Position numbers and translations under genes: made by a program
Shown: in pieces, positions 1 to 26,905 of the stretch
Layout: each line of letters starts with the position of its first letter
How positions within the stretch are numbered: position 1 is the first letter of the stretch
The notes under the pieces: model-generated
Databases searched by the model: none
The model's input: only the letters and a program-made list of their open reading frames with translations
Told to the model about the DNA's origin: nothing
Assembly: GCA_030830065.1 (NCBI GenBank)
Contig: JAURNR010000047.1
Span: 4,613-68,612 of the forward strand
Direction of reading: 5' to 3'
Source of the DNA: Bacteroidota bacterium
Lineage (GTDB): Bacteria; Bacteroidota; Bacteroidia; NS11-12g; UBA955
Length of the DNA stretch: 64,000 nucleotides

Positions 1-1169
1 CGGCTCTGGGTAATCTATTCCATTAAATATAAATACCTCGTCTAACCCATTTCGATTAGAACTGTAAGAACCTTTATTATTTGAAAATCTGTAAAAGAAG
101 TCATCCTTATTAGAATTGAATGGTTCTTTTAAGGATTCGATATTTAAGTTATCTTCAGAAAATAAAATATCAAGACCTCCAAATCCACCATGACCATTAC
201 TAGCGAAAAATAGTGTCCCATTTTCGTCAACAAATGGAAAGGATTCTTTCCCAGGAGTATTAATTTTATCACCTAAATTTTTTGGATCATCACTAATGAA
301 AAACCCGTTTGAATTAACTGAATCTACTTTTACACAGTATATATCAACATCACCAAGCCCACCCTTCATATTTGATGCGAAATAAAGAATGTGGTTTTTT
401 ACATCATAATAGGGATGAGATACAGAATAATCGTCTGAATTAATCGGAAGTAATATTTCTCTTTCTGTAACATTCCCATCAACAAGTTGAACATATATTG
501 ATTGAATATTTTTGGTTCCATCAGATGATGGTTTCCCCGACATTTTAGAAATCAGACAATAACTTTGGTCATCAGAAATATAACTGATCTCTGATGAGGT
601 TGAAATGTCGTTATAAAAAAAACTTAAAGTACTATTTGAAATTGTTTGTATTCCAAAATGCGGTTTCCCAAAAGTTTGAGATTTCTTATTGTTTGGATTA
701 ATACTCGTAAAATATTGATTACCCTCATTGGTTTCTAATAGTCCATAAGTATGGTATTTATTTTTATTAGGACTAACAAACTTATTATGTATAACAGTAT
801 CAAAATTAGAAAATGCCTCAGGATGGGCAGGTGATCCTAAGATATAATCAAATTCAGCACTTGCTAAAACAGCATAAAATAATGAGTCTTTTTTCATTGA
901 TTTCAGCAAAGACAACCAATATATCGAGTCACTTTTACTTAATTCGTTAGGAAAAGCTTTTGCGCATTCCGACATTGTTTTTTCTGCTGAATCTATCTCA
1001 CCTGTAAGATAATAAGCATGTGATAACTGCACTAAGAAATTGGGATCAGACGAAATTTTATCTTTTTGACTAATTATATCGTGGACCCTATTTTCGAACA
1101 GGAACTGTTCTATTTGAGCATCCAAACAATTAAATAAAAAAACTGCCTTAAATATTAAGAGTGTGATAC
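1..1169 (-). CDS. TPR + WD40-like (PD40/TolB-type) beta-propeller repeat protein, probably PorE/OmpA-family; N-terminal 390 aa only, C-terminus lies beyond the window start
   Basis: Reverse-complement ORF starts at ATG 1169-1167 and stays open to position 1. Signal-peptide-like N-terminus MLSRITLLIFKAVFLFNCLDAQ. Repeated YFAS..G..GG.D(I/L) PD40 motifs (ILYFASNMKGGLGDVDIY; LFFASNGHGGFGGLDIL). Not in the ORF track, presumably because it runs off the window edge. Confidence 0.55.
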
Positions 1170-1200
1170 GCGATAACATTACTGCAAAAATAATCTTATT

Positions 1201-1240
1201 AAAACAAAAAGCCTCGAACAAGTTCGAGACTTTTTGTTTT
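1201..1240. terminator. Hairpin flanked by an A-run and a T-run (bidirectional rho-independent terminator-like) just downstream of the giant type B CTD gene
   Basis: aaaacaaaaa GCCTCGAAC aagt TCGAGAC tttttgtttt; stem tcgaac/gttcga plus flanking G-C; read on the minus strand the hairpin is followed by a U-run. Confidence 0.5.
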
Positions 1241-1256
1241 AATCTGTAATAAATTA

Positions 1257-4200
1257 CTATTTAGAAGGTCTCAGTAAGTTTACTGAACCATTTACATAAT
1301 TAATCTTATCCTTCCCTTTAAAGCGGTACTGTAACTGATAGAAATACGTTCCTGAAGGAGCATCTGGTCCATCATTATTAATTTTACCATTCCACTGTTT
1401 CTTTGGGTCTTCACTAAAGAATACACGCTCACCCCAACGGTTGAAGATTCTTATTTCAAATAGATCTTGACCTTGGATAGGCACACGATAAGTGTCATTT
1501 AACCCATCTTCGCCCGGAGTGAATACGTTAGCCAGATAGATAAAGAGATCAACTACTACTGGCTTACAAATTGTATCCTCACAACCTGTAGAATTTTTAG
1601 TAATCAAACATACCCAGTAGGTATTTGAACTATCATAACTCCACTTAACCTTTACTTCATCAGACTTTAAGTTCTCAATGAAATCATTTGGTAGTTGCTT
1701 GGTGATATCGTGAGTATGTCCAAAGCCCCATCTCCATTCAACTCCATTAACATCAGTTCTTGTGAATGTAAAGTCAGGCTTACTGGCCGAGTCAATATCA
1801 AAATCTGAATATACTGAGTCTACCAAGAATGTAAGTGTATCCATCTCCGTAGGACACCATGGTCTTGGATGACTTGGGTCGTATTCTGCGTAGTGTAACA
1901 CTCTGTATACTCCAGGATCAGTAAAGGTCTTAGTGTATTGAGTTAAATTAGTCGTAACTGTATCAGTTACCCACTGACCTTGAGCTGTACTGTAGTGTTC
2001 AAATTTCCATTTATAAACCTTAAGAATTGTATCTGAGTTATCTATGAACGTGTTTGAATCACCTGGACAAATTGCAGCTTTCAAGATTTGACCACGAACA
2101 GAGTCACGAGGTAATACCAAAATCTGGAATTTCTCTTGACCTGATAAGGTATCAGGATAAATAGACTTACAGAATTTCATTTCCCCGTCAATCATCAACG
2201 TATCAACTTGCTCTAGATAAACTTCATATAAACCTGGTTGCGTGTATTTATGCCATAGATTATTATTCATATTGGCAGTGTCAACATTGGTGAATGAATT
2301 ATCACCCCAGAACCAAGTGAAGTTTGCGTATGAAGAAGGATCAATAGAAGTATTTTTAAAATCAAGGCTATCATCTACACAAATAGTAACAAAGTTTCCA
2401 GCTTTAGTTCCAAACTCAAAACGAGGAATTGGACCAGGAATCTTTATCTCCTTAACTAACGAATCTCCACAACCCTGATCAGTTAACACTTTCAATACAA
2501 TTTGGAATGTACCGTTACGTGTGTACAAATGACTCGCAGCCTCTGGTAGTGCTTCATCATTTACACTAGTCTTATTGTATTGTACTGTTTTACCATCACC
2601 CCAATCGATATACAACTGTTTCATGAAGTCACATACTGTTGGTGTTGGGCCATTACAATTTTTCACCGCCCAATTACATGGATCGTGCAATACAGATGAG
2701 TCTGTAAACTTAATTGTTGGCGTACATTTTCCAAGACCATCTAATTGTAAACCAAAGTTAACATCTAAACGTGAAATAAATACACGTTTAGCAATGGTAT
2801 CACGACAACCAGTAGAATCACCTGCTATATTTCTGAATGTGTAAACACCAGAATCGTTTTTGTAATAAAGATTACTTCCTCCACCTAATTGAACCCATGG
2901 GTTATTTGTTGATCCCGGCATACCAGAAGCTCCGTATGGTGCGTTACCGAAAATAGTATTGGCATCATTTGGATCATCGTCTTCTTTAGACCAGTCCCAA
3001 CGAGTTGGAGGCTCTTTACCTGCTTGACCATATCTCGCAGGATCTTTCCAATAGTCATATTGGGTGGGATTTTGAGCTGGATCAGCATTCCAATAATAAT
3101 TCCAATCCCATGTTCCGTTATTTTGAGGATCAATGTTAAAGTAACGATAATCTGGAGCAATTGTCAAAGACTCACCATCATTTCTACATACAATAGAGTC
3201 GGTGAATTTATCCATAAACATTGCGAATCCTACAATTATTGGTTTACCATCAAATGCTACACACTCTCCGTTATCCGAAGTCATCGATAAGCCGGCGATG
3301 TGATATCCTGCATATTCTGGGACAAACTTGTAACCATGAACCCAAGCACCATTAATTTGGTGTGAATCAATAGGTGTGATAGTAGAATCACGATAATGTA
3401 GTATGGTAGTCTCAGCTGGATTTGGAACAAAATAGAATTCAATATCTCTGCCATATCCCGCGGTATCAATACAACCATATGCACCTGTTTGAGGTTGGCC
3501 TATAGTTCCTTGGTTATTCCAAATCATTTTAGCGATAGTTGTATCAGCTAGCGCAAATGGATCAAAACCACGATCTTCAAGTCTAGTTTTAATTCTATCC
3601 CAAACCTTTGAAATATCCGCAGCAATCGTATAATCACGAATCTCCGCCGTAAAGATTGTATCCGGACCTTCAACTATTCTCGCCTTTCCATTTGCCCAGT
3701 CATTGGTACATTCTATTTGGTATGGATCTTCAGCATATTTTGTGCGCACAATGTAATTATAAATATAATCAGGGTTCTTACCTGGAACACTATCTTGATA
3801 ATGATAGTAATCTTCATCGATATAACGCAACCAACTCATTCCATATCCAGGACCTGCGTTATTATTAATAAATAACCAACGCAAAGATTTCAAATCACGA
3901 GTTACAGTTAAGTTAGCATCAATAGGTTTTACAATAACTTCATCCCACTTACAGATTTTGTATCCACCCCAACCTTGAGGAGTTAGATTAGCCACTTCCA
4001 TTGCTGGATCAATCATTGGGAAACAAGCAAACTTATCATAGTAGTGAGTATCACTACAAAGTGGACGCTGAGCGCTATTTCCACCTGGCTTGGCAATACC
4101 ATTACCTACTACTATTCCTACAGTAATACAAGAATTAGGGCCCCCTACCATGGATGCAGCATACTGCATAGAGAATTGATTTGGTGGATTACCAGACATA

Positions 4201-6809
4201 TTGTAGGCCGTTGCCCACCATGGAGCAGGAGGATTTAATGGACGTCCTCCCGGTGATAAAGCTGGAAGAGCATTCCAAGAAGCTGCTTGGTTAGGTGGGA
4301 ACGAGAATGTATCGTAATTTATTTGTACATCTGTAAAACTACATCCTGGCTTCAAATCACTTAGTATAAACGTAATTCCATATGTTGGATTTAGTGCTCC
4401 CAAACACTCTATCGCATCTTTGATTAATCCAGAACCAACGCCACCCGCATTAGCATGGAGCATCGCCAATTGTTTGGTTGCCTCACTCTCACACTTGAAT
4501 GGGTGACACGTATCTTTATGAACTAATCTTACACTATTACAAGAAGGAATTCTTGCATAATACAATTCACGAAAACGGTTGTAATCAATTATCCAATCGT
4601 ATTTCTCAATTCCTTGAGGAATTTGTCTAAAGGAGTCTATAGGCGTTATATATTCGCCCTTGTTTAATCGAATCTTTAACAAATTCCCTGGTAACGTATC
4701 TCTTCGAAGGTGTTCGGTATAAAGATATTCAAACGAATCGGTAGGACTGGTTAATATCACTACATCTTCTGGTTTCAGCAAGATAGTATCTTTTGGACCA
4801 ACTACTAGAGTTTTAGTACCCTCTTGTGGGCCAATCCATGCTGAATCGTTGGCGCCTAGACGTATTCTAATAAAATCTTCTTGATACCTTTCAGCTGGTC
4901 CTACAACCTTTTTCTCTCTCCTGAAAATTACTGAACCTTTATTTCCACTAGCGGTATATGAGGCCGAATCAGCAGAAGTAGGAGGTACAGCAATCATTGT
5001 ATCATCGAATATATAAAACCAACTATCAGCATATACCAACAATCGCTTACATAAACCATTACTATCAATAAAAATTGCATCCTCCATTGGAGTCATCTTA
5101 AAGTCTGATAACATTACTAAATCCCATGATTTATAATAATGATAAGGGATGGTATCATGTGAGTAATTACAGTTTACGGTAACGTTTTTATTGTGTAGAA
5201 TATCGGTGGTACATTTTGCACCAAAATTATCACCAAAATCCCACAAACGAGTAGCACACCAGCGTTCACGCTTCAATGGGTCTCCACCACCAGCTGGTGC
5301 GGCTGAACCACCTGCAGGCGCATACACGGTAGTATCACCACGTGAATTCGCCTCCCATCTTACTGGTGGTTGCCAAATTTGAATTGGATTTCCATTGGCA
5401 TCAACCTGGAAAGTATGACCTAACCCACCTGTTGCCTTATAAAAAGTACTATCGTCGTCTGTAAAATCAGGGTCATTATGATAGAAAGTTGAATAATTAC
5501 GGAAGAATACCGTATCCATTACATCTTTAGGACACTGGAATACCTGCCAATCTGGTATTCTATCTCCCATTACATCAATTGTAGATGCAGGACCTAAAAT
5601 TATGATGGTATCATAAATCGATTGATTACCACAAATCGGGTGTTTATAAGTAAGGTTTACAAGAAATGGTCCTAGTCCTGTAAAGGAGTGTGAAGGACTC
5701 CATGTTTTATTATTGAAGTTTTGAGGACCAGAATTAGGATCACCAAAATTCCATAATAAACCAGATGCCCCTGAAGGAACTTGATCCACTGTAAATTCAA
5801 TTTCGGGAGCAGACATACAAGTGGAATCTTTATTTGCAATTATTTTCGCCTTTGATGCATTAACCGTAGCCACGGCTTTCACAACAAATGAATCTACACA
5901 ACCTTGTAGTGTAGTAACAATCAAAGTAGAATTATATGTTCCTTGCCCATAGAACCACTTGCTGTATTGTGGTCCCCACAGCTTATCAAACAAATCTTGT
6001 TCTGCTTGGTCCCCAGTATTGTTCTTAGCTTGCTCTTTAGTACCATCTCCCCAATTCCAAATAATAGAATCAACGAGGTTCTTGTTTAAACGAGTAGCGT
6101 TGGTGATTTTTGCTTCAACTGAATCACAGCCTATTGGCTTATTACTTGCAAATGCAGTACCTATTTTTTCGTAAATAAACATTGCACCTTGCCAATTCAC
6201 AGTGTCTACACAACCATACTCATCTTCAACCTCAATATAAATATCAAAAGTACCACCACGCTGATCTTTAATGGAAAAACAAACCTCGTTAGGTAAATCA
6301 GATGGAGGATATTTATATGAGAACGATTGTCCATCAGACAATAAATATCTCGATTCCTTAATTTTACCACCACCATTTGTAGCATCAACTTCAGAACTAT
6401 CTTTGAAACAGAATAGATTCTTTTCAAAACATTGTTCTCTAATACTAGATCTGGTTAATTTAATTTCTGGTTTTGGACGGATATTTAACTTCGTAGATGA
6501 TTTACAGGTTTGTCCATTGATTGTGGTTTCATACTCCACCGTTGCTTGCCCTGGAGCAAGAAAAGAATAGGAAACTGTTGATTGACCTGAAGTGGTGTAA
6601 GTACCACCTGCTGCATCTTTAAAAGTCCAACTGTGAGTTGTTCCAGTAGAAGAGCCTGTAAAGAAAATCGGTGCATCAACACACTCATTTCCACTAACTG
6701 TAATTGGACAATTTTGAGCATTAACTGCAGATGTTAGTGTAAAAACTAGCGCAATTAAAGCCCAAAGGTTTTTTGTAATCCGTGAGGTTACTATTTTCAT
6801 ATTTTCCAT
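1257..6809 (-). CDS. Giant (~1850 aa) secreted adhesin-like protein with T9SS type B C-terminal sorting domain (SprB-like cargo)
   Basis: C-terminus LANVFTPGEDGLNDTYRVP...IRIFNRWGERVFFSEDPKKQWNGKINNDGPDAPSGTYFYQLQY...VNLLR matches the gliding-motility-associated/type B CTD hallmark (PNxFTPNGDGxND...FNRWG...G.Y.Y). Signal peptide MENMKIVTSRITKNLWALIALVFTLTSAVNAQ suggests the true start is the ATG at 6809, not the longest-ORF start at 6929. Cys-, Thr- and Gly-rich PKD-like repetitive body. Confidence 0.8.
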   Translation of the reverse strand: MENMKIVTSRITKNLWALIALVFTLTSAVNAQNCPITVSGNECVDAPIFFTGSSTGTTHSWTFKDAAGGTYTTSGQSTVSYSFLAPGQATVEYETTINGQTCKSSTKLNIRPKPEIKLTRSSIREQCFEKNLFCFKDSSEVDATNGGGKIKESRYLLSDGQSFSYKYPPSDLPNEVCFSIKDQRGGTFDIYIEVEDEYGCVDTVNWQGAMFIYEKIGTAFASNKPIGCDSVEAKITNATRLNKNLVDSIIWNWGDGTKEQAKNNTGDQAEQDLFDKLWGPQYSKWFYGQGTYNSTLIVTTLQGCVDSFVVKAVATVNASKAKIIANKDSTCMSAPEIEFTVDQVPSGASGLLWNFGDPNSGPQNFNNKTWSPSHSFTGLGPFLVNLTYKHPICGNQSIYDTIIILGPASTIDVMGDRIPDWQVFQCPKDVMDTVFFRNYSTFYHNDPDFTDDDSTFYKATGGLGHTFQVDANGNPIQIWQPPVRWEANSRGDTTVYAPAGGSAAPAGGGDPLKRERWCATRLWDFGDNFGAKCTTDILHNKNVTVNCNYSHDTIPYHYYKSWDLVMLSDFKMTPMEDAIFIDSNGLCKRLLVYADSWFYIFDDTMIAVPPTSADSASYTASGNKGSVIFRREKKVVGPAERYQEDFIRIRLGANDSAWIGPQEGTKTLVVGPKDTILLKPEDVVILTSPTDSFEYLYTEHLRRDTLPGNLLKIRLNKGEYITPIDSFRQIPQGIEKYDWIIDYNRFRELYYARIPSCNSVRLVHKDTCHPFKCESEATKQLAMLHANAGGVGSGLIKDAIECLGALNPTYGITFILSDLKPGCSFTDVQINYDTFSFPPNQAASWNALPALSPGGRPLNPPAPWWATAYNMSGNPPNQFSMQYAASMVGGPNSCITVGIVVGNGIAKPGGNSAQRPLCSDTHYYDKFACFPMIDPAMEVANLTPQGWGGYKICKWDEVIVKPIDANLTVTRDLKSLRWLFINNNAGPGYGMSWLRYIDEDYYHYQDSVPGKNPDYIYNYIVRTKYAEDPYQIECTNDWANGKARIVEGPDTIFTAEIRDYTIAADISKVWDRIKTRLEDRGFDPFALADTTIAKMIWNNQGTIGQPQTGAYGCIDTAGYGRDIEFYFVPNPAETTILHYRDSTITPIDSHQINGAWVHGYKFVPEYAGYHIAGLSMTSDNGECVAFDGKPIIVGFAMFMDKFTDSIVCRNDGESLTIAPDYRYFNIDPQNNGTWDWNYYWNADPAQNPTQYDYWKDPARYGQAGKEPPTRWDWSKEDDDPNDANTIFGNAPYGASGMPGSTNNPWVQLGGGSNLYYKNDSGVYTFRNIAGDSTGCRDTIAKRVFISRLDVNFGLQLDGLGKCTPTIKFTDSSVLHDPCNWAVKNCNGPTPTVCDFMKQLYIDWGDGKTVQYNKTSVNDEALPEAASHLYTRNGTFQIVLKVLTDQGCGDSLVKEIKIPGPIPRFEFGTKAGNFVTICVDDSLDFKNTSIDPSSYANFTWFWGDNSFTNVDTANMNNNLWHKYTQPGLYEVYLEQVDTLMIDGEMKFCKSIYPDTLSGQEKFQILVLPRDSVRGQILKAAICPGDSNTFIDNSDTILKVYKWKFEHYSTAQGQWVTDTVTTNLTQYTKTFTDPGVYRVLHYAEYDPSHPRPWCPTEMDTLTFLVDSVYSDFDIDSASKPDFTFTRTDVNGVEWRWGFGHTHDITKQLPNDFIENLKSDEVKVKWSYDSSNTYWVCLITKNSTGCEDTICKPVVVDLFIYLANVFTPGEDGLNDTYRVPIQGQDLFEIRIFNRWGERVFFSEDPKKQWNGKINNDGPDAPSGTYFYQLQYRFKGKDKINYVNGSVNLLRPSK

Positions 6810-6928
6810 TTGTTGTAAGATTTCAAATTTATGTGATTTAAGCGATAAACGGAAATTCCAATCATTACTAATGAAAGTCCTTGAATTTCCTTGACATTTA
6901 TTGCTTTTATAATTGATTATTTTTCTCA

Positions 6929-8035
6929 TTAATTCCTATTTAACCAAACTGTTGATGTCTTTGATTTCCATTCAGTATCACCTGAATATTTGTATTTCAA
7001 AATGACCGTATAAATTCCTTTTTTGCATTGCCTTCCTCTAAAGTCACCACCCCACTTACCCGTACAGTTATTAGACTCATATACAATTTGTTTTGTTGGG
7101 CCAATTACTCTCATTAAAAACTCCTTAGTAGTAGGCATCTCTGCGTAAAAGGAGTCATTAATACCATCGTTATTGGGGGTAAAAATATTCGGCACAATGA
7201 TATCTTGTTGAATACCATTATTAATTATAAATACTTTACGTTCGATTTTCTGATCACATTTTTTACCTTTTGCACTTATACTCACAGTAAATTCTTTAGA
7301 ATTCAATATATAGAATTTATGCTTTACTTCGAATTGATTTTCTAATATAAATTTGTTAAAATCTAAATCCCCCCAGTCTATTTCAACAGGAATATTTTCA
7401 TTGTTTCTTGCAACATTCACAAAATTCAATATGGCTGTTTGATCTTCAACCATTAGCTCGACACCCAGCAATCCACAGTTCACTGAAGTGGTTATTTGTT
7501 GCTCTGGTATTTGCCCTTCTTTAATGGGATTAGCAACAAAATATTCAGAGGTATCTTCAATGTAATTATTTTCTACATCACCTTTCTCTTCAACTACCGC
7601 ATCTATAATATTAGGTTCTCCAATTAATAACTGGGAATTGTTTCCGGTATATTTGGTAGGTTCTTCTATTGAATCTTTAGAAGTAAAATCTTCTTCAACA
7701 TTTGAAGATGTAGTTTTTGGTGAAATAAGTCCCTTTTTGATTTTGTTTTCATTTTGAACCGAATCAATAACAATTGTTTTGTCCAGATTACTTTGGTTAA
7801 ACCAAACAATAGAGGCTGCAGTTACAGAAACAACAGTTGCAACAACTGCTACTTTCACCCCCGTAACACCTGCTAACTTTGCAGCAATTTTCGATCCTTT
7901 ACTAACCGTTTGTGTAATTTGAGGATTTAAATTTCCTTGAATTGAATTAAAAACTGAACTTGGAGGATTAACCTTTGCGTCCCCTAATCCCTCTTTGAAT
8001 AGCTTATCGATATTTGAACCTAAATTACTCATCAC
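6929..8035 (-). CDS. Anti-sigma-factor-like single-pass membrane protein fused to a T9SS type B C-terminal sorting domain
   Basis: Start overlaps the upstream ECF sigma stop by 11 nt (ATGATGAGTAA). N-terminus DKLFKEGLGDAKVNPPSSVFNSIQGNL resembles the N-termini of Bacteroidota anti-sigma partners. Hydrophobic helix VKVAVVATVVSVTAASIVWF at about aa 61-82. C-terminus IIVPNIFTPNNDGINDSFYAE...GIYTVILKYKYSGDTEWKSKTSTVWLNRN is a type B CTD. Confidence 0.6.
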   Translation of the reverse strand: MMSNLGSNIDKLFKEGLGDAKVNPPSSVFNSIQGNLNPQITQTVSKGSKIAAKLAGVTGVKVAVVATVVSVTAASIVWFNQSNLDKTIVIDSVQNENKIKKGLISPKTTSSNVEEDFTSKDSIEEPTKYTGNNSQLLIGEPNIIDAVVEEKGDVENNYIEDTSEYFVANPIKEGQIPEQQITTSVNCGLLGVELMVEDQTAILNFVNVARNNENIPVEIDWGDLDFNKFILENQFEVKHKFYILNSKEFTVSISAKGKKCDQKIERKVFIINNGIQQDIIVPNIFTPNNDGINDSFYAEMPTTKEFLMRVIGPTKQIVYESNNCTGKWGGDFRGRQCKKGIYTVILKYKYSGDTEWKSKTSTVWLNRN

Positions 8036-8564
8036 CCAGCCATTTTTGCAATAACTTTCGTGCTTTAAACAATTGAGTTTTACTCGTGTTTTCTGAAATT
8101 CCTAAAATTGATGCAATCTCACTATGAGCATACCCTTCAATTGCATACATATTAAAAACAGTCCTGTAGCCTAAGGGCAACTGGCGCAATAGAGTCATCA
8201 AATATTTTTCGTTTAATGTATCTGAGGATTTTTCAGGAATTGAAACTTGAAGAGCATCATCATTCACATTCGTAAATAAATGTGAGCGGTCTTTTCTTAT
8301 GTAGTCAAGACATTGGTTCACACAAATACGCTTTAACCAACCCTCAAAAGAACCCTGAAATTTAAAGTTCCCCAGATTATTGAAAATTTTTATGTAAGAC
8401 TCTTGTAGCATGTCTTGAGCTTGATCTTCGTCCTTGCTGTAACGCAAACAAATTGCAAATAAAACGCTTGAAAAACGTTCATATAACTCTCGTTGAGCAT
8501 CGCTGCTTCCATCCAAACACTGCTGGATTATCGAGGCTTCGTTGCTGCGATTTTGAGATGCCAT
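8025..8564 (-). CDS. ECF-type RNA polymerase sigma-70 factor
   Basis: 179 aa. Region 2-like LYERFSSVLFAICLRYSKDEDQAQDMLQESYIKIF and region 4-like HTH YRTVFNMYAIEGYAHSEIASILGISENTSKTQLFKARKLL. Confidence 0.85.
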   Translation of the reverse strand: MASQNRSNEASIIQQCLDGSSDAQRELYERFSSVLFAICLRYSKDEDQAQDMLQESYIKIFNNLGNFKFQGSFEGWLKRICVNQCLDYIRKDRSHLFTNVNDDALQVSIPEKSSDTLNEKYLMTLLRQLPLGYRTVFNMYAIEGYAHSEIASILGISENTSKTQLFKARKLLQKWLGDE

Positions 8565-8632
8565 TTGCTGAGTTCATCACAAGGATTTATACCAAGATGC
8601 CGAGTATACTTATTAGGTTGCCTGTGTGATAA

Positions 8633-10726: not shown

Positions 10727-11839
10727 CTATTCAGCACTACCCAATCCGATGCGCACTCCAAAAGAATGAACACCGCTGAACGGGTTTGTTGCACGATAGT
10801 TGTAATCTAAAGAAATTACATTCTCATCATTAACATGCCAATCATAAGATAATCCTGCAAATGGACCAGTAAATGCCGAGGTTCTTGTATCTTCAGAGAA
10901 TATTCCTTCTTGATAACAAAATCCGCCTCTTACAGAAAGCATATCCTTGTAGGAATATTCTAGTGCTAGAGTAGACTGATTTGCTGAAAAAGCATGATTA
11001 GTGAAAGCAATACCAACAGTCAAACGATTGTCATACATATTGTCATCCCTATCTAGGCGAATATCATAAGATGCTCCAATGTTTAACAACGCCGGAAGTT
11101 TAATACCTGCTGTTTTAACTTGCATTGTTTTATCGAAATCACCATTTTGAATTACCGCCTTGTAACTCAAGCCATCACCACTAAAGGTCATATCTGGACC
11201 AATGTTCTTAACAGAAACTCCAAATTTGAAATCGTTTCTTTTACTCGCATTTCTACTTGGGAACAATGTAGTTGTGTATTGTACACCTGCGTCCAAAGCC
11301 ACCCCAGATACACTAGCATCAGGAATACCCTCAGATACCATTCTTGCCATTACACCTGCTGAAATAGAATTAGAAAAAGTTTTCGAATACGCTACACCAA
11401 TATTTGTCATATTCACTCGGTAAGTTCCAATTCCTCCGTGCGGATTTTCAACTGTGGTAATTTCAATTGGATCAATACCGAACTGCATTACTTGAATACC
11501 AAGAGAACCAGCATCGCCGTCTTCTCCTAATTTCAATGCCAAACCAAGATTATTGATTCCGATACCAGAACCCATTAACCATTCAGTTCTTGCGAATACT
11601 AATTCAGTTTTATTCGCCATTCTATCTAAGCCACCTACATTCATGAACATCGCTTCAGCACCATTAATACTTCCACCTGCTGTCCATCCTAAACCACCAG
11701 ATCTTGCCCAACCGTTGATTGTTAATTGTGCTGCACCCGCTTGACCCTGTCTTTCTGGGTTACCCGCTTTTAGTATATTAGAGTTAAGTCCAATACATGT
11801 AAGTGCTAAAGCAAAAATCAATTTATAATTTACGTTCAT
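10727..11839 (-). CDS. PorV/FadL-family outer-membrane beta-barrel (PorV-like T9SS shuttle protein paralog)
   Basis: 370 aa with signal peptide. N-terminal LTINGWARSGGLGWTAGGSINGAEAMFMNVGGL aligns to the PorV/FadL hallmark (L.I...ARSGGMGD.G.A.....A....NPA.L). Alternating amphipathic beta-strands. Sits 10 nt downstream of a T9SS CTD protein. Confidence 0.6.
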   Translation of the reverse strand: MNVNYKLIFALALTCIGLNSNILKAGNPERQGQAGAAQLTINGWARSGGLGWTAGGSINGAEAMFMNVGGLDRMANKTELVFARTEWLMGSGIGINNLGLALKLGEDGDAGSLGIQVMQFGIDPIEITTVENPHGGIGTYRVNMTNIGVAYSKTFSNSISAGVMARMVSEGIPDASVSGVALDAGVQYTTTLFPSRNASKRNDFKFGVSVKNIGPDMTFSGDGLSYKAVIQNGDFDKTMQVKTAGIKLPALLNIGASYDIRLDRDDNMYDNRLTVGIAFTNHAFSANQSTLALEYSYKDMLSVRGGFCYQEGIFSEDTRTSAFTGPFAGLSYDWHVNDENVISLDYNYRATNPFSGVHSFGVRIGLGSAE

Positions 11840-11849
11840 CTTTTTTCTA

Positions 11850-14800
11850 TTAATATGTATCTAAATCAACGGCATGCATTATTCCATACCAACGAATAAT
11901 TTTTTCTCCTAATCTTGGTGCGTTAACGTGAATCAAGTATAACCCACTAGCAATTGGCACATTACTACTATTCTTCAAATCCCACTCATAATATGTCAAA
12001 TCATCCGCTTTATTCACAGTGCGAATTAGATTACCTGCCATATCAAAAATGCGTATCTTACATTCTGGAGGGAGGTTGGTAATTTTTACACGGGAATCAA
12101 TAGGACTATTTTCATATTCACTATATCCACGATACGGATTAGGCACAATATTTACTAAATCTAAACTCTTAGTACCCACTTCGTCAGAGATTTTTGGAGC
12201 AATTGATGCACCATCGAACTCATACATTGGACGATCATCATTTCTATCGTCGCCGGTTGCGAAAGTCGTATATGCTTTTTGCACATGCACTTTGAATTTC
12301 ACCTCTGTAGGAGGAATCCCATTGTCCATATTGTAACCTGGGGCCAGGTATGTAGGAATAACCCAAGTTACTGTAGACATTAAACGAATCTTATTAAGAT
12401 TGGTTAATGCAGGTGATGTAAGTGCATTTTTAAATCGGTCGAAATTAGCTTCATCTGGACCTAAATAACGCTCTCCAGAAATATTTCGTGTCAAACCGTG
12501 GTTACCTGTTCCAAAAATGTATAAGAAATGTTTACCACCTATCGCAGGGTAAGATCCATTATCGTTATAAACCGTCGAAGTAGGATTCCAAATCATATCC
12601 CGACCGTTTTCACCGGTTAGATAACTGTCTTCCCCAAAGGCAATTTGCATACGCTCACCAGTTTCAAGATTAATTACATATCCTGGGAACCAGCTCAAGC
12701 CTTTACTTCCAGGTATATCGTTAAAGTCAATATCTTTAGAAGCTGCATCACGCATATTGAATTTCCAGATATTTCCCTCATTACCATTCTTAACCTCGTC
12801 ATCAGACATCTCTAATACCGGACAACGGGTCCACTTCGATTTATCTGGGGTGATAACCAATTCAAAACTATGTAATTCAGAAAGTGGATTTTGCAAGTGA
12901 GTAGCATTACCTGACCAAGCAAAACCAAATGTATTTCTACCATTTGCAGCACTGTACTTTTCACGAGCAGCCAATCCATAAGGCGCGATACGCCCGTTCC
13001 AGATTTTCTCATAAGATTGCCCTGGGTCTAAAGGTGCTCCATCAGTACCCATAAAGTCATGAAGATAACCATCAAAGGTAGCCCCTCTTCCATTGCTCCC
13101 AGAACGAATCCAATTTAGCCAAACACTACCAGAAGTAGGTGTACTTTGTGCATCATTATCCGCAATTGCAGTAAGCCATTGTCTTCCATTATCTTCCCAT
13201 TCTACGGTCCAATCCAACAATCCATTTTGTGGGTCTGCAGCAGAATTTTCGGAAGGGTTGTATACCTGATTAATTTCAACGCTTAAACCCCAATCAGATA
13301 AATTGTCCTTGGTTGCATTGTACTCACTTGGAATACCCTGTACGCTTTCAAAAGGTTGACCAATTGTAGTGTCAGAATATATAGTATCATTTCCATTATC
13401 GCCCTTGCGTACAAGAATCCAATCTGTGTTACGCGTCATTGAATCACGCAAACCAATTGAATTAGATGGTGTGCGCTCTTTGAAGATAAGTTCAAATTTA
13501 TCTATAGGAACTTTCAATGGATCAACTACCTTCACGTTAACCGGACCAAATCCGCCCATGTATGTAGGCTGAGTAACAAAATTTGTAGCTAGAATTTCTT
13601 TTACAGTTTCCTCTGTAAACTCGAGCGACATTCCTCCATTTCCACGACCTGAAATTCTCTTTAAAACGGGGCCACTTCCATAGGTAGAATTCAGTTCTGT
13701 TCCGAAATTCTCAGAATCTGTTTTATGAGGGGTAGCACGGTAAACTTGAATATTTCTACGACCCGCTAAAAACTGGTTTGGATCAATCTGCAAAGTATCG
13801 TCTGAAAGTACGGCATAACTCAAAATCATGTAGTAATAATTCTTGTAATCTACAAGAGATGTATTTGCTGACGTTGCAAAAAGGTCATTCTTGATACTAA
13901 AAGTATGTTGAACACCTTTGTCCGCTCCATCTACTTTTTCAACTGGTATCATTTGAGATAACTTTGGATCAAACACTTGATTTACTATTTGTCCTCGATT
14001 ATTTTGTACGTCACACTGGAATAACAAACGCGCCTTATCAATATTATCAAGATCAGAAGTATTTACCGTAGCATCTTTTAATTGATAAACTAAGTAACCT
14101 TCAAACTTATATGTTAACTCTTCGTTATTTGCATTCTTATACTTCTCTGTATAATTTTCAACTTTTGTAGAATTTGTATTCAAGAATTTCAAAACTAATT
14201 CTTGCTCTAATTCCTGTATTTCAACATCTGGAGCATCAGGCCCATCAAGAATTTTGAAATTATTGTTAAACAGAGTTTGTGCTTTATCCGAAGCAAGTTT
14301 TAATAGATCTAATGACCCAGTAGCACCACCACTTGTAGTTCTCGCCCATACAACACCTACGGTAATTCTTTGAACTTGACCAGGACGCAATAAGAAAGGA
14401 CCTGTAGATTGCAAGAAACGACGGTCACCAGGACGATTTCCCGAAGATTTCTCATCCCAACAACGACCAGCAAATTCAGGATCCGTACAACCAGGATACA
14501 TATAATTTGAAATTTCGCTTCCGCCAAATCCATTACCTCCCCAAGTCACATTTTGTCCACCTTTCCATTTACCTCTCAAGTAGTTATAAAATGAATTAGG
14601 ATTACCTCTATCAGGGTTACCGTTAATAGGATTTGCATCATTATTGTAATACATAAAGTGGCTCATCCCCATTTGATTACCAGCAGTATCTGTTGGACCC
14701 TCAAAATAATCAACACCTATAGTTGGAGGATTTAAACCATAGCCTAAAACACCTTCATCATCATCGTCACCATTGTAACAAAAACCTAAACTTCTTCCCA

Positions 14801-15743
14801 CATCACAACCCACGTAGTCATCTGCGTAATTACCTAGGTCAGCATCAACCCATTGACCCATGTAACAGTCATTAAGGGTTGTAAAACCTCTGTTGATGAT
14901 CTTGGTTGAATAAAAGGTCATATTATTCACTTCATCGTTGGTCGCAAACGCAAAGGCAGTAGTTTGACACTCCACACCAATTGGTTGACCCGAACTTTCA
15001 GAGTGAATATTTCCTTTATCGTTGTATACCCACCAAATGAACATATCCGGCTGACGATTAACTCCATTTTCAGCATTTGGACGTCTTTCATCTAAAACTG
15101 GATGCTCACCATCAAAAGGGTTATAAATTCCATCAGGAACAATTTCTTTATATGGAGCTAGGTAATTAGCTTCGGGCCCTAATCCTACCGAACGATTACT
15201 TCCCGCAGGCCAGTCACGAATACCAATACTTTGAGTTAAAAATTTAGACTCTTCAAATTCCTCTAATTCATCACGCGTAACTTTCCACATACGATCATAA
15301 GACTCACAACGCAATGGTTCAGTCGCTGCTGTAGTAGTATCCAAAGGACCAGGCCAAAAGTCAGAACCAAACTGTCGATAAGTCATTGCAGCTAACTTCA
15401 GGTTACCTCCGTTATCTTTACCACCTATCCAAATGGCACCTGCAAACAATGAGTGTTTTCTGACAGCGTTTGGATCATTAATTTTAGGAATTTCATATTT
15501 AGGATTATTTAAATCCCACCACATATCGCCTCCGTTCAACAACTTTGTTCTCACGTTGTTAATGTCTAAGTCTACCGATTGTGACGCTGGGTTACATGTG
15601 CTTGCAAATGCACCTGCTCTCTTATTCACACTATTCGACTTCGACGAAGATCGTCCCTGTATATTAACCACAGGACGTGCTGCCACCATGGATACCAGGG
15701 CGATACTTGCAGCTAATATTCCGAATTTTTTCGTCATTTTCAT
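11850..15743 (-). CDS. Large (1297 aa) secreted protein with T9SS type A C-terminal domain; synteny with the PorV-like gene makes a PorU-like protein possible
   Basis: Signal peptide MKMTKKFGILAASIALVSMVAA. C-terminal LVNIVPNPYRGYSEYENSPIDSRVKITNLPPECKIRIFDMAGNLIRTVNKADD...ASGLYLIHVNAP fits the Por_Secre_tail pattern, followed by a ~20-aa extension (RLGEKIIRWYGIMHAVDLDTY). Acidic Cys-containing core (DDYVGCDVGRSLGFCYNGDDDDEG). Confidence 0.7.
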   Translation of the reverse strand: MKMTKKFGILAASIALVSMVAARPVVNIQGRSSSKSNSVNKRAGAFASTCNPASQSVDLDINNVRTKLLNGGDMWWDLNNPKYEIPKINDPNAVRKHSLFAGAIWIGGKDNGGNLKLAAMTYRQFGSDFWPGPLDTTTAATEPLRCESYDRMWKVTRDELEEFEESKFLTQSIGIRDWPAGSNRSVGLGPEANYLAPYKEIVPDGIYNPFDGEHPVLDERRPNAENGVNRQPDMFIWWVYNDKGNIHSESSGQPIGVECQTTAFAFATNDEVNNMTFYSTKIINRGFTTLNDCYMGQWVDADLGNYADDYVGCDVGRSLGFCYNGDDDDEGVLGYGLNPPTIGVDYFEGPTDTAGNQMGMSHFMYYNNDANPINGNPDRGNPNSFYNYLRGKWKGGQNVTWGGNGFGGSEISNYMYPGCTDPEFAGRCWDEKSSGNRPGDRRFLQSTGPFLLRPGQVQRITVGVVWARTTSGGATGSLDLLKLASDKAQTLFNNNFKILDGPDAPDVEIQELEQELVLKFLNTNSTKVENYTEKYKNANNEELTYKFEGYLVYQLKDATVNTSDLDNIDKARLLFQCDVQNNRGQIVNQVFDPKLSQMIPVEKVDGADKGVQHTFSIKNDLFATSANTSLVDYKNYYYMILSYAVLSDDTLQIDPNQFLAGRRNIQVYRATPHKTDSENFGTELNSTYGSGPVLKRISGRGNGGMSLEFTEETVKEILATNFVTQPTYMGGFGPVNVKVVDPLKVPIDKFELIFKERTPSNSIGLRDSMTRNTDWILVRKGDNGNDTIYSDTTIGQPFESVQGIPSEYNATKDNLSDWGLSVEINQVYNPSENSAADPQNGLLDWTVEWEDNGRQWLTAIADNDAQSTPTSGSVWLNWIRSGSNGRGATFDGYLHDFMGTDGAPLDPGQSYEKIWNGRIAPYGLAAREKYSAANGRNTFGFAWSGNATHLQNPLSELHSFELVITPDKSKWTRCPVLEMSDDEVKNGNEGNIWKFNMRDAASKDIDFNDIPGSKGLSWFPGYVINLETGERMQIAFGEDSYLTGENGRDMIWNPTSTVYNDNGSYPAIGGKHFLYIFGTGNHGLTRNISGERYLGPDEANFDRFKNALTSPALTNLNKIRLMSTVTWVIPTYLAPGYNMDNGIPPTEVKFKVHVQKAYTTFATGDDRNDDRPMYEFDGASIAPKISDEVGTKSLDLVNIVPNPYRGYSEYENSPIDSRVKITNLPPECKIRIFDMAGNLIRTVNKADDLTYYEWDLKNSSNVPIASGLYLIHVNAPRLGEKIIRWYGIMHAVDLDTY

Positions 15744-15753
15744 TAATTCTTTT

Positions 15754-18700
15754 TTAGTTCAAACTGAAACGGATTCCCAAACGGATGGTACGTGGTCTAT
15801 TCCAGTTACCTGTTTGAGAGTTTAACAATAAGCGGTATAAGTCGGTATAACTTTGTGCATCCACTTGATTTCTTATCAATAGCTGACCTTGCGGTGACGT
15901 TAAGAAACCATCATCATTAGGTTGACCAGTGTAAGGGAATACTCCAGTAACATTCCAAGTATTAAGTAGGTTATTAACCCAAAGGAATGCCGCAAAACGC
16001 AATGGATTTTTTGAATCACCACGATTAAGCTGGAATGATTTAGTTAAGTTAAAGTCAAAGTTATACTGCCATGGCAAACGTGCTCCAAATGGAACACCCT
16101 TAATCTGCGCACGGTCAACAGCACCAATTTGCACAGGTCTTACTGTTGGAGTATATGGACCACCGCTATATGTATTGGCAATAATGTTGATACTAGTATT
16201 TTTCAAAACTTCCTTACCGAACAGAATAGGTCCTTTGTATAGATTTCTGCGATTTCTATCACGTCCTCCGGCCCAAGCCCAAGTTGCAGACAACTTGATG
16301 TTGTGGCGAATATCCAAATCACCCAAAGGAATTACAGTTCTCAAATTTGGCTGGTTAGAAGCGATTAACGCTGCCTGAGAGTTGATGTTTGATCCAGTAC
16401 CATCAGCAAACTGCAACATATAACTCGCAGAAAGAGTCATCGGACCAATATCTCTCATTACAAAATTTCCACGGAATCCTGTAATTGTTGCGAAATCAAT
16501 ATTTCTGTATGTTGAATATGTAACAGGATATCCCTGATTGATTTGATAGAGTCCAAAATCATTTCTTATTTCTGAATAGGACGCCGCTAACTCCAGTCCT
16601 TTATCATTTCTTCTACCAAAAATTTGTTTAAATCCTACTTCATAATCCGTCTTCAAACGAGAATTTAATGAACCGTTTGCTAAAGTAGAACCCTGTCTAA
16701 ACTTCAAAAAGTAAACATCGTCAATAGAAACAAACGACGCTCCAGCGTTTGGACGCTGTGCTAAAACATCGTAACTAACGTAGAATGACTTTCTCTTGTC
16801 GAGAGGAAATGAGAACCAGACACGAGGTAACAAGTTTACTATTGGAGTATAGTCCATGAAGGTAGCTTCAGTTACTTCTTGAGTATCTGTTCTGTATAAG
16901 TATGGTGCAATACGTCCATTTACTGTTTTGTTCGCCAAGAACTCAGGGTTTCTTTGTTCCGAACCGTCGGCATTAAACCACTTATCTCCCATACGGTATC
17001 CTACGATTTGAGTAGGAGATTCCATATCGTTCACATAAACTTTTGCATCCTCAGCAATATTGGAAGGGTGATTAATTGGTAAACCATTAATCTCACCAAC
17101 TTCAGCTGCTGTTTTAATTGGATATAATGAATATGGATCTGCCAACACAATTTGGTTTGCATCGTAACGTTCCATACGAAGTCCTAGACGGAAGATCAAG
17201 TCTTTAAATTGGAACTGGTCTTGTAACCAAGCAGCAATATAAATTGGTTGGAAAGCACCGATTGTGCGCTTATCTGGATCATTCAAGAATTCAGAAATAG
17301 AAGGTTTTCCTTTTACCTTATTTCCTAAATGATCATATCCAAAGTAATTAACATATCCATTACCATTGTTCAATAACTCATTCGCATTGAACATGTCTAA
17401 ACTAAAATCTCCAGGTTTATAGCTGTTGATATCTACAAACGTTCTTTCATCAATAGCTTTGCCATAAACATCAGTGGCTCCTTGAGAAATTAATTTATTT
17501 CTAAAATTGCGATCAAAAGTAGATTGCTCTTCATAATTCACCAATCTATTATAGCGGATTGTATCAGTAAATACTCCATTTTCATCATACGATAAAATAG
17601 GATTTTCGATATCCAATTCACCGATATGTTTATTCATTAACTGACGCATTAAGATCCATAAACCGTTTGCGTTTAAACCATAACCTCTATTAATATTTTG
17701 CTCATAATAAAAACCAGCTTGCAAATCATGAGGAGTACGCTGTCTGCCACCTTGTGTTTTTGGCTTAACTTGCATCTGACCCAAAGCAAATAATGAATAT
17801 TTTTCAGATTGGTTCCTACTCCATCCACCAACGGTTGTTCCAGGAGTAGACCAAAGCGAATAAACGTTTACAGGGTTGTAACCGTTCAATAAACCTTGGC
17901 TAGCTAGAACTGTCAAAGGGTTTGTGATTTTTGCACCTCTTTGGGTGTAAAAATCGTATACATTTGAGGTGTATCTTGCACGAACAGGATTCAAGTCGCT
18001 CGCCTGGTAATCTAACAGAGTATCCATGTAACCTATATGCTCCCAATAGTTACTTAACTGAACATAGTTTCCAAACTGATCACGAACAACTCTTGGGTCC
18101 TTGTTTGGATTTTGTTGTGCATCTGTGTGGGAGTATGCAAATACTTCCGTTGGATAAGCTGTAAATGACCCTACATATCCATAATTAAAAACATCATCTA
18201 AATGATCTGCATTTCTTGAGAAAGACCAAGCATTTTGATATTCTGCACGAACAGTGTAGAATGCAGATTTAATATTACTACGCTTGTCGACTTTAAAATT
18301 CTGACGGAACTGAAGATAAGATCTGAAAGTATGGTTATCGATTCTTGCAGTATTCGCAAAGTTTAAAATATTATTTGTTACGCTTCTTCCTCCGCCATAA
18401 AAGTAAGATGCAAAAGCTGTAAGCGATATATATTTATTGGGATTAAACTCTAGTTTTCCAATGAAGTTTGAGTTAAACTGTTGTGAGTTTGGGCGAGCTG
18501 CAATATTTTGGAAATCAGACTCTCGTAAGAAAGAAGCAGAATGCACGAAACCATTTGGAGTAATGGTCAACGGATTTTGCTCAATCTCCGACATTTTCTC
18601 ATCATTTAACACATAAACACCTGTACGTGTGGGTGAAGGATCGTAGTAATAACCAACGTTTCCGTTTAACGTAAAACCTAGCTTTACGAGCTTATCGGTT

Positions 18701-19500
18701 GTTCCATTGGCATTTTTCTTTTTTTGAACCCACAATGGCCCCGAAACAAATCCTTCCAATGTACTGTATCCATAAGGATCTAAAAACTGGGAAGTTATTC
18801 CTTCAAAGATTGAAATATATTTATCTGTCGCACTCTTGGATGTGTAGGAAAATGCTCCACCCGTTAAGTCACCATACATGGCTGGAATACCACCGATATT
18901 TACAGATAGCTGATCCACTCCTAAAGATGGAATAGCACCACTACCGATTACACGCATACCATCAACGAATGTACCATTACCGTCTGAACGCGTTCCTCTA
19001 ACGGAAATACCTTGACGTGATTCAACAATTGCAGAGTTCGTGGAGGTTAATGCACCCATACCACGCCTTCCACTATTTATCATCTGCTTTCCGTCAATCG
19101 AAGCCTCATTTTGCTCCATTTGAATAACCTTTTTCGATGCTTTAGTGGAAATCACAACCGCCGTCATTGAGGAAGTCATGTTTACAGTCTTAGGTTCATT
19201 CAATCCTGCACGTAGCGTTAAATCCGTAATTTTCTGGGTTGAAAATCCGTCTTTTGATGCTTCCATGTCATAAGTACCAGGGTTTAAGGTTTGGAAAATT
19301 ACATTTCCATCCATGTCTGTAGTATCATATGCTTTTTTGATACCGTTTAAATACATGTTAACCATTACCCCACTCATGCGTTTACCATCACCGTCTAAAG
19401 CGGTCACCCGAAAATCCGCAAAGTTGGTCTGAGCAAATGTAATTGCTGAAAACATTCCAGCAATTACCAAGAGCGACCATTTCAGTAGTTTATCTCTCAT
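15754..19500 (-). CDS. TonB-dependent-receptor-like outer-membrane protein with N-terminal carboxypeptidase-regulatory-like domain and plug (1248 aa)
   Basis: Signal peptide. CarboxypepD_reg-like GVMVNMYLNGIKKAYDTTDMDGNVIFQTLNPGTYDMEASKDGF. Plug-like ISVRGTRSDGNGTFVDGMRV...IPAMYGDLTGGAFSYTSKS. Long beta-rich C-terminal region. No SusD-like partner follows. Confidence 0.7.
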   Translation of the reverse strand: MRDKLLKWSLLVIAGMFSAITFAQTNFADFRVTALDGDGKRMSGVMVNMYLNGIKKAYDTTDMDGNVIFQTLNPGTYDMEASKDGFSTQKITDLTLRAGLNEPKTVNMTSSMTAVVISTKASKKVIQMEQNEASIDGKQMINSGRRGMGALTSTNSAIVESRQGISVRGTRSDGNGTFVDGMRVIGSGAIPSLGVDQLSVNIGGIPAMYGDLTGGAFSYTSKSATDKYISIFEGITSQFLDPYGYSTLEGFVSGPLWVQKKKNANGTTDKLVKLGFTLNGNVGYYYDPSPTRTGVYVLNDEKMSEIEQNPLTITPNGFVHSASFLRESDFQNIAARPNSQQFNSNFIGKLEFNPNKYISLTAFASYFYGGGRSVTNNILNFANTARIDNHTFRSYLQFRQNFKVDKRSNIKSAFYTVRAEYQNAWSFSRNADHLDDVFNYGYVGSFTAYPTEVFAYSHTDAQQNPNKDPRVVRDQFGNYVQLSNYWEHIGYMDTLLDYQASDLNPVRARYTSNVYDFYTQRGAKITNPLTVLASQGLLNGYNPVNVYSLWSTPGTTVGGWSRNQSEKYSLFALGQMQVKPKTQGGRQRTPHDLQAGFYYEQNINRGYGLNANGLWILMRQLMNKHIGELDIENPILSYDENGVFTDTIRYNRLVNYEEQSTFDRNFRNKLISQGATDVYGKAIDERTFVDINSYKPGDFSLDMFNANELLNNGNGYVNYFGYDHLGNKVKGKPSISEFLNDPDKRTIGAFQPIYIAAWLQDQFQFKDLIFRLGLRMERYDANQIVLADPYSLYPIKTAAEVGEINGLPINHPSNIAEDAKVYVNDMESPTQIVGYRMGDKWFNADGSEQRNPEFLANKTVNGRIAPYLYRTDTQEVTEATFMDYTPIVNLLPRVWFSFPLDKRKSFYVSYDVLAQRPNAGASFVSIDDVYFLKFRQGSTLANGSLNSRLKTDYEVGFKQIFGRRNDKGLELAASYSEIRNDFGLYQINQGYPVTYSTYRNIDFATITGFRGNFVMRDIGPMTLSASYMLQFADGTGSNINSQAALIASNQPNLRTVIPLGDLDIRHNIKLSATWAWAGGRDRNRRNLYKGPILFGKEVLKNTSINIIANTYSGGPYTPTVRPVQIGAVDRAQIKGVPFGARLPWQYNFDFNLTKSFQLNRGDSKNPLRFAAFLWVNNLLNTWNVTGVFPYTGQPNDDGFLTSPQGQLLIRNQVDAQSYTDLYRLLLNSQTGNWNRPRTIRLGIRFSLN

Positions 19501-26784: not shown

Positions 26785-26905
26785 TTTACAAAAATAGTTG
26801 GAACCTCAAGTATTCAAAAAACATCGAATAAAATGACAGAAATAAACGATAAAAATCTCCCACATAACGAAAGCACTGTTCCAAATGAACTAATTATAAC
26901 GATTT

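Follow-up and report, generated by a model that had tools for sequence, protein, structure and literature searches.

The Dma family of anti-sigma factors, described in 2024 (Pardue; PMC10927553), is known from the Dma1/Das1 pair of Bacteroides thetaiotaomicron and the Reo/EcfO pair of Bacteroides fragilis. The features of the family are a neighbouring sigma factor of the ECF21 group (ECF, extracytoplasmic function), one transmembrane (TM) helix, a long tether that is disordered, and an outer-membrane barrel at the C-terminus; the fragment Dma1(1-40) pulls down Das1, and full-length Dma1 carries both ends and spans both membranes. Dma1 is reported to be processed into C-terminal fragments, which are found in outer-membrane vesicles, and to control vesiculation (PMC10927553). 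Here, we describe a locus in a 64-kb window of Bacteroidota DNA (the window being the whole stretch of 64,000 nucleotides that was analysed) in which an ECF sigma factor gene overlaps the gene of a membrane-anchored partner protein whose far end carries a type IX secretion system (T9SS) C-terminal domain (CTD) of type B. On the sequence comparisons reported below, this partner is best read as an anti-sigma factor of the Reo/Dma type that carries a T9SS type B domain where the barrel would be.

The CTDs of type B cargo pass from the SprA translocon to cognate PorP/SprF shuttles, which take them up and to which they stay bound at the cell surface, the shuttles being of low abundance, limiting, and stoichiometric with their cargo (PMC12618676, PMC9143113). 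Examples are SprB/SprF and Fjoh_3952/3951 of Flavobacterium johnsoniae and PG1035/PorP/PorE of Porphyromonas gingivalis, and PorE-PorP-cargo complexes exist (PMC12618676, PMC9143113). A shuttle gene adjoining the cargo gene is common, not universal, and orphan type B cargo is known (PMC12618676). A T9SS CTD that doubles as a signal controlling an ECF sigma pathway is seen in the PorA-PorY/PorX-SigP system of P. gingivalis (PMC7712824, PMC12152298), where the CTD of PorA acts as a periplasmic signal to the regulator PorY (PMC12152298).

The whole unit in the window, consisting of a promoter, the sigma factor gene, the partner gene, a giant gene, and a PorE-like gene, lies on the minus strand. 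In window coordinates, which are used throughout, its first part comprises the following features:

8595 to 8621, minus strand: ECF-type promoter, GCAACC-N16-CATCT, a conserved motif ~30 nt upstream of the sigma start codon
8025 to 8564, minus strand: ECF (group IV) sigma factor gene, 179 aa, by Pfam and TIGR02937 matches
6929 to 8032, minus strand: gene for the anti-sigma-like partner, 367 aa and a stop codon, with an ATG that overlaps the sigma stop by 8 nt (ATGAGTAA)
7928 to 8032, minus strand: partner aa 1-35, conserved, predicted cytoplasmic module (NIDKLFKEGL...NPPSSVFNSIQ), presumed to bind sigma from its conservation and homology
7796 to 7861, minus strand: partner aa ~58-79, predicted single TM helix with the N-terminus inside, by hydropathy
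7478 to 7795, minus strand: partner aa 80-185 (~105 aa), acidic, poorly conserved, disordered tether, by model confidence (pLDDT, predicted local distance difference test) and composition
7217 to 7477, minus strand: partner aa 186-272, PKD/Ig-like beta-sandwich that holds a WGD motif and the conserved residues Cys187 and Cys260, by AlphaFold2 (AF2) model, fold search, and Pfam matches of relatives
6932 to 7216, minus strand: partner aa 273-367, type B T9SS CTD (CHU_C), by Pfam PF13585 and a pLDDT of ~90

The sigma factor gene product is an ECF (group IV) sigma-70 protein of ~180 aa with sigma-2 and sigma-4 domains only (Pfam Sigma70_r2, 52 bits; Sigma70_r4_2, 58.7 bits; TIGR02937, 86 bits vs. 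a cutoff of 42.9), and among the best 25 of its 101 NCBIfam matches the equivalog and subfamily models all scored under their cutoffs. Together with the gene behind it, it has the anatomy of an ECF sigma/anti-sigma gene pair, as proposed in a preliminary description of the locus. That description had given the overlap of the two genes as 11 nt with the string ATGATGAGTAA and the partner as 368 aa; the genes do overlap, with a junction that reads GTGATGAGTAA, and we corrected the overlap to 8 nt and the product to 367 aa given that orthologues start at the ATG and that an exact 367-aa product is present in public records.

The partner is built of five parts: a polar N-terminus, one TM segment, a disordered linker, a PKD/Ig-like sandwich, and a CHU_C domain. 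Conservation peaks at both ends and is lowest in the linker, with identities to the orthologue in a related locus (L001) of 71% in the N-terminal module, 73% in the CTD, and 24% in the linker. Within the conserved polar N-terminus (NIDKLFKEGLGDAKVNPPSSVFNSIQ) lies the anti-sigma-type motif that had been noticed earlier (NIDKLFKEGLGDAKVNPPSSVFNSIQGNL, aa 7-35), which we found to be homologous to the N-termini of Dma-like partners. No Pfam or NCBIfam model matched this motif, nor did the partner match the curated anti-sigma domains (zf-HC2/RskA class I, CnrY class II) in either collection at E-values up to 1-10. As had been claimed, there is one hydrophobic segment only (aa ~58-79 by hydropathy; Kyte-Doolittle 19-residue maximum of 2.0), preceded by three Lys within 15 aa and followed by a net acidic stretch, a pattern common to seven of seven family members. 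This first hydrophobic segment begins at aa ~58, behind the conserved polar module and well after the conserved start codon, with a core of 18-22 residues; judged by hydropathy, which is the sole basis for these limits, the N-terminus is not a cleavable Sec signal peptide. The tether that follows holds 20 D+E vs. 9 K+R, and pLDDT in the AF2 model (computed from a 40-sequence alignment; a 7-sequence alignment gave a mean pLDDT of 38) was below 50 over aa 32-183.

The remainder (aa 185-367) was modelled as two beta-sandwiches at a pLDDT of ~90. The first is the PKD/Ig-like domain, with seven strands; relatives of the partner match Pfam PKD and PKD_4, and a PDB fold search with the model returned generic tandem Ig/FnIII/PKD proteins only. 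According to PMC12618676, no structure of a type B CTD has been solved. The second sandwich, the last ~90 aa, matched Pfam CHU_C (PF13585) at 42 bits (gathering score of 27, E 1.1e-10). The earlier assignment of this region as an unmistakable type B CTD thus stands on a significant CHU_C match, with a reservation over TIGR04131, for which the window partner reached 23.2 bits against a cutoff of 35 and relatives of the same architecture pass (e.g., 39.3 and 36.9 bits). The type B motifs PNxFTPNxDGxND, W-G, G-Y, and the terminal R are kept in the partner CTDs, which form a lineage of their own with a YKYSGDxEWK motif and a conserved Cys as special features. No OMP_b-brl match, the signature of an outer-membrane barrel, was found in the partner, its C-terminal half being occupied by the CHU_C domain and the Ig-like sandwich.

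Related loci were gathered via the sigma factor, with the best 80 of 550 relatives in Bacteroidota genomes kept, which gave 78 partners, mostly from metagenome-assembled genomes (MAGs). In most of the ~80 loci, the gene after sigma starts near the sigma stop codon and often overlaps it, and nearly all partners open with IDxLF+xxL...PPxxvW, behind which comes a hydrophobic stretch at aa 41-70. The C-terminal module was CHU_C/TIGR04131 in 37 of the 78 partners and an outer-membrane beta-barrel (OMP_b-brl_2) in a further 25, so that the window partner is no one-off, belonging to a widespread family, and other sigma-adjacent genes ending in a type B CTD exist. The NF052375 'antisigma' model matched 3/78 partners, the window partner not being among the three. 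Proteins with CHU_C or OMP_b-brl_2 were recovered again in a separate exhaustive search with the N-terminal profile among 1.84 billion representative proteins. Full-length partner homologues numbered six in 5.8 billion proteins, with synteny kept, and the 367-369-aa product falls in a cluster of 30 members, those listed deriving from several sources and from separate contigs. The product is also found in a cultured isolate, Brumimicrobium aurantiacum N62 (WP_116879715.1).

The two kinds of partner share their N-terminal module. CHU_C-type and barrel-type modules matched by hhalign at 98.6% (E 1e-15), and a barrel-type N-terminal profile matched all 37 of 37 CHU_C-type N-termini (17.7-49.9 bits), including that of the window partner at 27.6 bits, compared with 9.2 bits for the best of 740 shuffles. 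Given this score and the 37/78 independent loci, the architecture is beyond chance. The two forms also agree in how far the C-terminal domain lies from the TM helix, with medians of 194 aa in the CHU_C form and 189 aa in the barrel form. In the sigma tree, CHU_C-type partners occur in at least two clades and as a singleton, and barrel-type partners in other clades; relatives sharing 42-50% identity have barrel-type (Dma-like) partners. Identities of sigma factor and N-terminal module co-vary (Mantel r of 0.79, reached by 0/2000 permutations), a correlation confounded by phylogeny and, with that confounding, consistent with a co-evolving pair.

The partner therefore resembles Dma/Reo proteins in lying next to a sigma factor gene, in its homologous N-terminal module, in its one TM helix, in the ~190-aa disordered spacing, and in its restriction to Bacteroidota, and differs in having PKD/Ig-like and CHU_C domains instead of the eight-stranded outer-membrane beta-barrel. 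Since that defining barrel is absent, we regard it as a sister architecture and not as a strict Dma member. From these comparisons, it is very probably the anti-sigma factor for the adjoining ECF sigma factor. The preliminary description had called an anti-sigma factor with a T9SS tag architecturally paradoxical; the partner does appear to be membrane-anchored with a CTD, and the paradox is lessened by Dma1 and Reo, anti-sigma factors that reach the outer membrane (PMC10927553).

Some further variation was observed among the gathered loci. Four Cytophagales/Flexibacter MAGs (L027, L028, L042, and L044) hold a third partner flavour of 309-328 aa, with the same N-terminal motif and TM helix, no recognisable C-terminal domain, and a conserved tail (...KVNLQxILPNNE...NEIQAD). 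In ten barrel-type Bacteroidales loci (L022, L024, L034, L036, L037, L052, L053, L059, L071, and L076), a conserved open reading frame (ORF) of 590 aa begins 4 nt before the partner stop, which suggests a three-gene operon. Two matches to the N-terminal profile, P0010 and P0015, are barrel-type proteins of 629-642 aa with the motif at residues 40-75, not at the outset, and four matching stretches; their starts may be mis-called, or their N-termini may be extended further. The loci are all from Bacteroidota, apart from some in bins that are probably contaminated: contigs labelled Sphingomonadales (L007) and Thalassovita (L058), both from Alphaproteobacteria MAGs, carry Bacteroidota-type sigma/partner modules that are probably binning contaminants.

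Downstream of the partner gene, the unit continues with the following features:

6824 to 6831, minus strand: Bacteroidota sigmaA-type -7 box, TAAATTTG (TAnnTTTG), within the conserved spacer that precedes the giant gene
1257 to 6800, minus strand: giant type B CTD/PKD surface protein with a signal peptide, ~1847 aa from a likely start at MKIV..., by domain matches and synteny
1198 to 1243, minus strand: strong intrinsic terminator closing the unit, a hairpin of 20 pairs (5 G-C) followed by a T-run
1 to 1179, minus strand: 5' part of a PorE-like OmpA-family gene that runs off the window, by a Pfam PD40 repeat

In the clade of the window (sigma identity of 48-90%), the order of sigma factor, CHU_C partner, giant CHU_C protein, and PorE-like gene is conserved. 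The giant protein matched CHU_C (65 bits), TIGR04131 (43.6 bits vs. a cutoff of 35), and PKD_4; its open frame spans 1257-6929, and in 13 distinct related loci the partner gene is followed by an orthologue of ~1817-1886 aa. Its CTD is conserved at 75% and that of the partner at 45%. We considered whether the partner CTD mimics that of the adjoining giant cargo and rejected this, the identity of partner and giant CTDs being 34.5% when both come from one locus and 33.9% when they come from different loci. For the PorE-like gene, the full-length orthologue in L001 (622 aa) matched NF052230 T9SS_PorE at 173 bits, under the cutoff of 600, and has an OmpA domain. A TAnnTTTG box (TATTTTTG, 1180-1200, minus strand) lies just 5 nt upstream of the called PorE-like ATG, which means either an almost leaderless transcript or a true start that lies further downstream. 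Just upstream of the sigma/partner unit (10727-19500, minus strand) is a second T9SS-related cluster, the same trio being present in L001: a PorV/PorQ-family outer-membrane protein of 370 aa (NF033709, 116 bits vs. a cutoff of 90), a protein of 1297 aa with a C-terminus similar to the PorZ/type A CTD region, and a CarboxypepD_reg protein of 1248 aa.

The giant gene, which at first sight seems translationally coupled to the partner gene, is not. The spacer between the two (6801-6928, ~125 nt) is nearly invariant between the window and L001, though the partner proteins are only 47% identical, and a TAnnTTTG box, the Bacteroidota housekeeping -7 consensus (PMC9723704), lies upstream of the signal-peptide start of the giant gene in 16/16 examined loci of the clade (~25-40 nt upstream where measured). 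Given the conserved spacer with its -7 box and the signal-peptide start, translation most likely begins with the ATG at 6800, and the first 43 codons of the 1890-aa mechanical ORF are probably not translated. No terminator-like site was found between the partner and giant genes, so read-through from the ECF promoter into the giant gene is possible.

The ECF promoter itself has the anatomy of an auto-regulated one: GCAACC-N16-C[ATG][TA]CT lies upstream of the sigma gene at an equivalent position in 23 related loci, and the motif occurs once in the 64-kb window vs. 0.08 expected by chance. The window holds no extra copy at zero mismatches and, with two mismatches allowed, nothing convincing except a weak match at 26800. 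This intergenic site (26800-26826, plus strand, GGAACC-N16-CATCG, two mismatches) lies ~80 nt upstream of an ORF at 26906-27928 without an NCBIfam family match, and could be a promoter for another ECF sigma factor or a chance occurrence. An Rfam scan of the window returned zero matches.

We infer a model of sigma binding, topology, T9SS docking, proteolysis, and regulon. The first ~35 residues of the partner would hold sigma in the cytoplasm, one helix would cross the inner membrane, and the ~105 disordered, acidic residues would cross the periplasm, with the PKD/Ig-like domain and type B CTD forming the far end. Where Dma inserts its barrel in cis, the CHU_C end of the partner may dock in trans at outer-membrane machinery, given that it bears the domain by which type B cargo enters the T9SS and binds a PorP/SprF-type shuttle. 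A changed contact (capture, pulling, or loss) would then lead to proteolysis of the tether and free the sigma factor, which would fire its own GCAACC-N16-CATCT promoter, read-through adding to transcription of the giant type B adhesin gene. On balance, we lean towards this explanation as a whole, that is, a cognate anti-sigma factor of the Reo/Dma kind that reaches the outer-membrane T9SS machinery, and the part of it in which the CTD works through T9SS components seems to us just on the probable side.

Several points weigh against it. The window partner falls short of the TIGR04131 cutoff. The link to Dma1 and Reo was drawn through relatives that are defined by their architecture. In the second CHU_C clade, housekeeping genes surround the sigma/partner pair and no adhesin gene is nearby, and no PorP_SprF match, the sign of a porP/sprF gene near the pairs, was obtained among the window neighbours or 44 neighbour proteins elsewhere, including those of the second clade. 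The giant gene has a conserved sigmaA-type promoter of its own, so that it may not depend on the ECF sigma factor. Finally, a stable state in which the CTD is fully exported and yet tethered would be topologically awkward, because a hydrophilic tether cannot exit the translocon sideways; for this reason, we consider two versions, one in which the CTD docks from the periplasmic side and one in which it is pulled and cut, as in a secretion checkpoint.

Compared with type B cargo, the partner shares the motifs of CHU_C/TIGR04131-type CTDs and lies next to genes for a giant type B adhesin-like protein and a PorE-like protein, and differs in its 57-aa, presumably cytoplasmic module and membrane anchor in place of a cleavable signal peptide, in its small size (367 aa), in its coupling to a sigma factor, and in having no porP/sprF-like gene adjacent. 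It also differs from PorA, a separate secreted protein with a type A CTD that acts on a two-component sensor kinase, whereas the CTD in the window is of type B and lies within the presumed anti-sigma polypeptide itself. In FlgM/sigma28, FecR/FecI, and RsgI/SigI, the fate of the anti-sigma factor depends on a secretion machine or on something that happens beyond the inner membrane. The logic would be shared with the partner; the protein families and machines are unrelated, and no resemblance in sequence or fold was seen.

The explanation that competes best retains the anti-sigma function and dispenses with the secretion system, the CHU_C domain being a borrowed beta-sandwich that serves as a periplasmic sensor or binding domain, never meets the T9SS, and responds to a signal such as envelope stress or a ligand. 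The TIGR04131 score below cutoff, the separate lineage of the partner CTDs with its YKYSGDxEWK motif and Cys, the lack of a shuttle gene among the neighbours, the second clade's housekeeping surroundings, and the missing cleavable signal peptide, a feature of every known T9SS cargo, would each fit such a domain. Harder to accommodate are the retained type B motifs and the relatives that clear the TIGR04131 cutoff, as well as the sister proteins, whose corresponding module is an outer-membrane barrel and whose tether has equal length, both of which indicate the outer membrane as the place to be reached. In the window's clade, moreover, the module is kept beside a giant type B cargo gene and a PorE-like gene. 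We consider this explanation rather unlikely.

A sharper form of the T9SS-docking explanation, which we rate as unlikely, is a secretion-gated checkpoint in which the T9SS pulls on the CTD, the tether is cut, the C-terminal piece is exported, and sigma is released. The partner would have the required parts, the CTD being an export signal and the tether long and disordered, and the C-terminal fragments of Dma1 in outer-membrane vesicles and the limiting supply of shuttles for type B cargo are in keeping with it. FlgM/sigma28 is the established precedent for a checkpoint tied to secretion. The scheme is purely inferential for the partner and would consume one anti-sigma molecule per release event; moreover, no protease site or gene was identified, and the adhesin gene has its own promoter. 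If true, the regulon would be transcribed only while export of type B cargo, by way of the translocon and a free shuttle, is working, giving gliding/adhesin export a control like that of FlgM in one polypeptide bridging both membranes.

Public records name proteins of the partner type as gliding motility-associated C-terminal domain, T9SS type B sorting domain-containing, PKD domain-containing, or hypothetical proteins, and none as an anti-sigma factor. Taken at face value, these names would favour a small T9SS type B surface protein with a long, conserved signal-peptide extension and an incidental co-transcription with sigma; extended signal peptides exist in autotransporters, and the small residues (TAA/S) that end the hydrophobic segment could be a peptidase site. 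We find this very improbable, given that the N-terminal module is among the best-conserved parts of the protein and is homologous to barrel-type N-termini, that the published Dma representative binds sigma via this region and stays uncleaved there, that 18-22 residues make a long hydrophobic core by the measure of signal peptides, and that the gene order persists across ~80 loci with a module that co-varies with sigma. A chimeric ORF arising from assembly, binning, or gene calling, to which loci drawn mostly from MAGs might be prone, is for practical purposes refuted by the 30-member cluster from several sources, the cultured isolate, and the 37 loci.

Full-text literature searches found no anti-sigma factor with a type B CTD or gliding C-terminal domain, and a term search of two Dma papers returned no mention of the T9SS or of a CTD variant. 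In its 2024 description, the Dma class was presented as unprecedented and was defined by its C-terminal outer-membrane barrel. Among the closest relatives of the window sigma factor, the same module, anchor, and tether are joined about as often to a T9SS type B domain, which would make the family to which Dma belongs a modular signalling device for reaching the outer membrane. Dozens of proteins labelled as T9SS cargo or as gliding-associated are probably regulators. The arrangement points to a direct, single-protein link from the T9SS/adhesin pathway to ECF transcription, and, where the supply of type B adhesins may have to be matched to limiting shuttles, the partner is a concrete candidate for doing so, an idea that the cultured carrier B. 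aurantiacum N62 makes testable.

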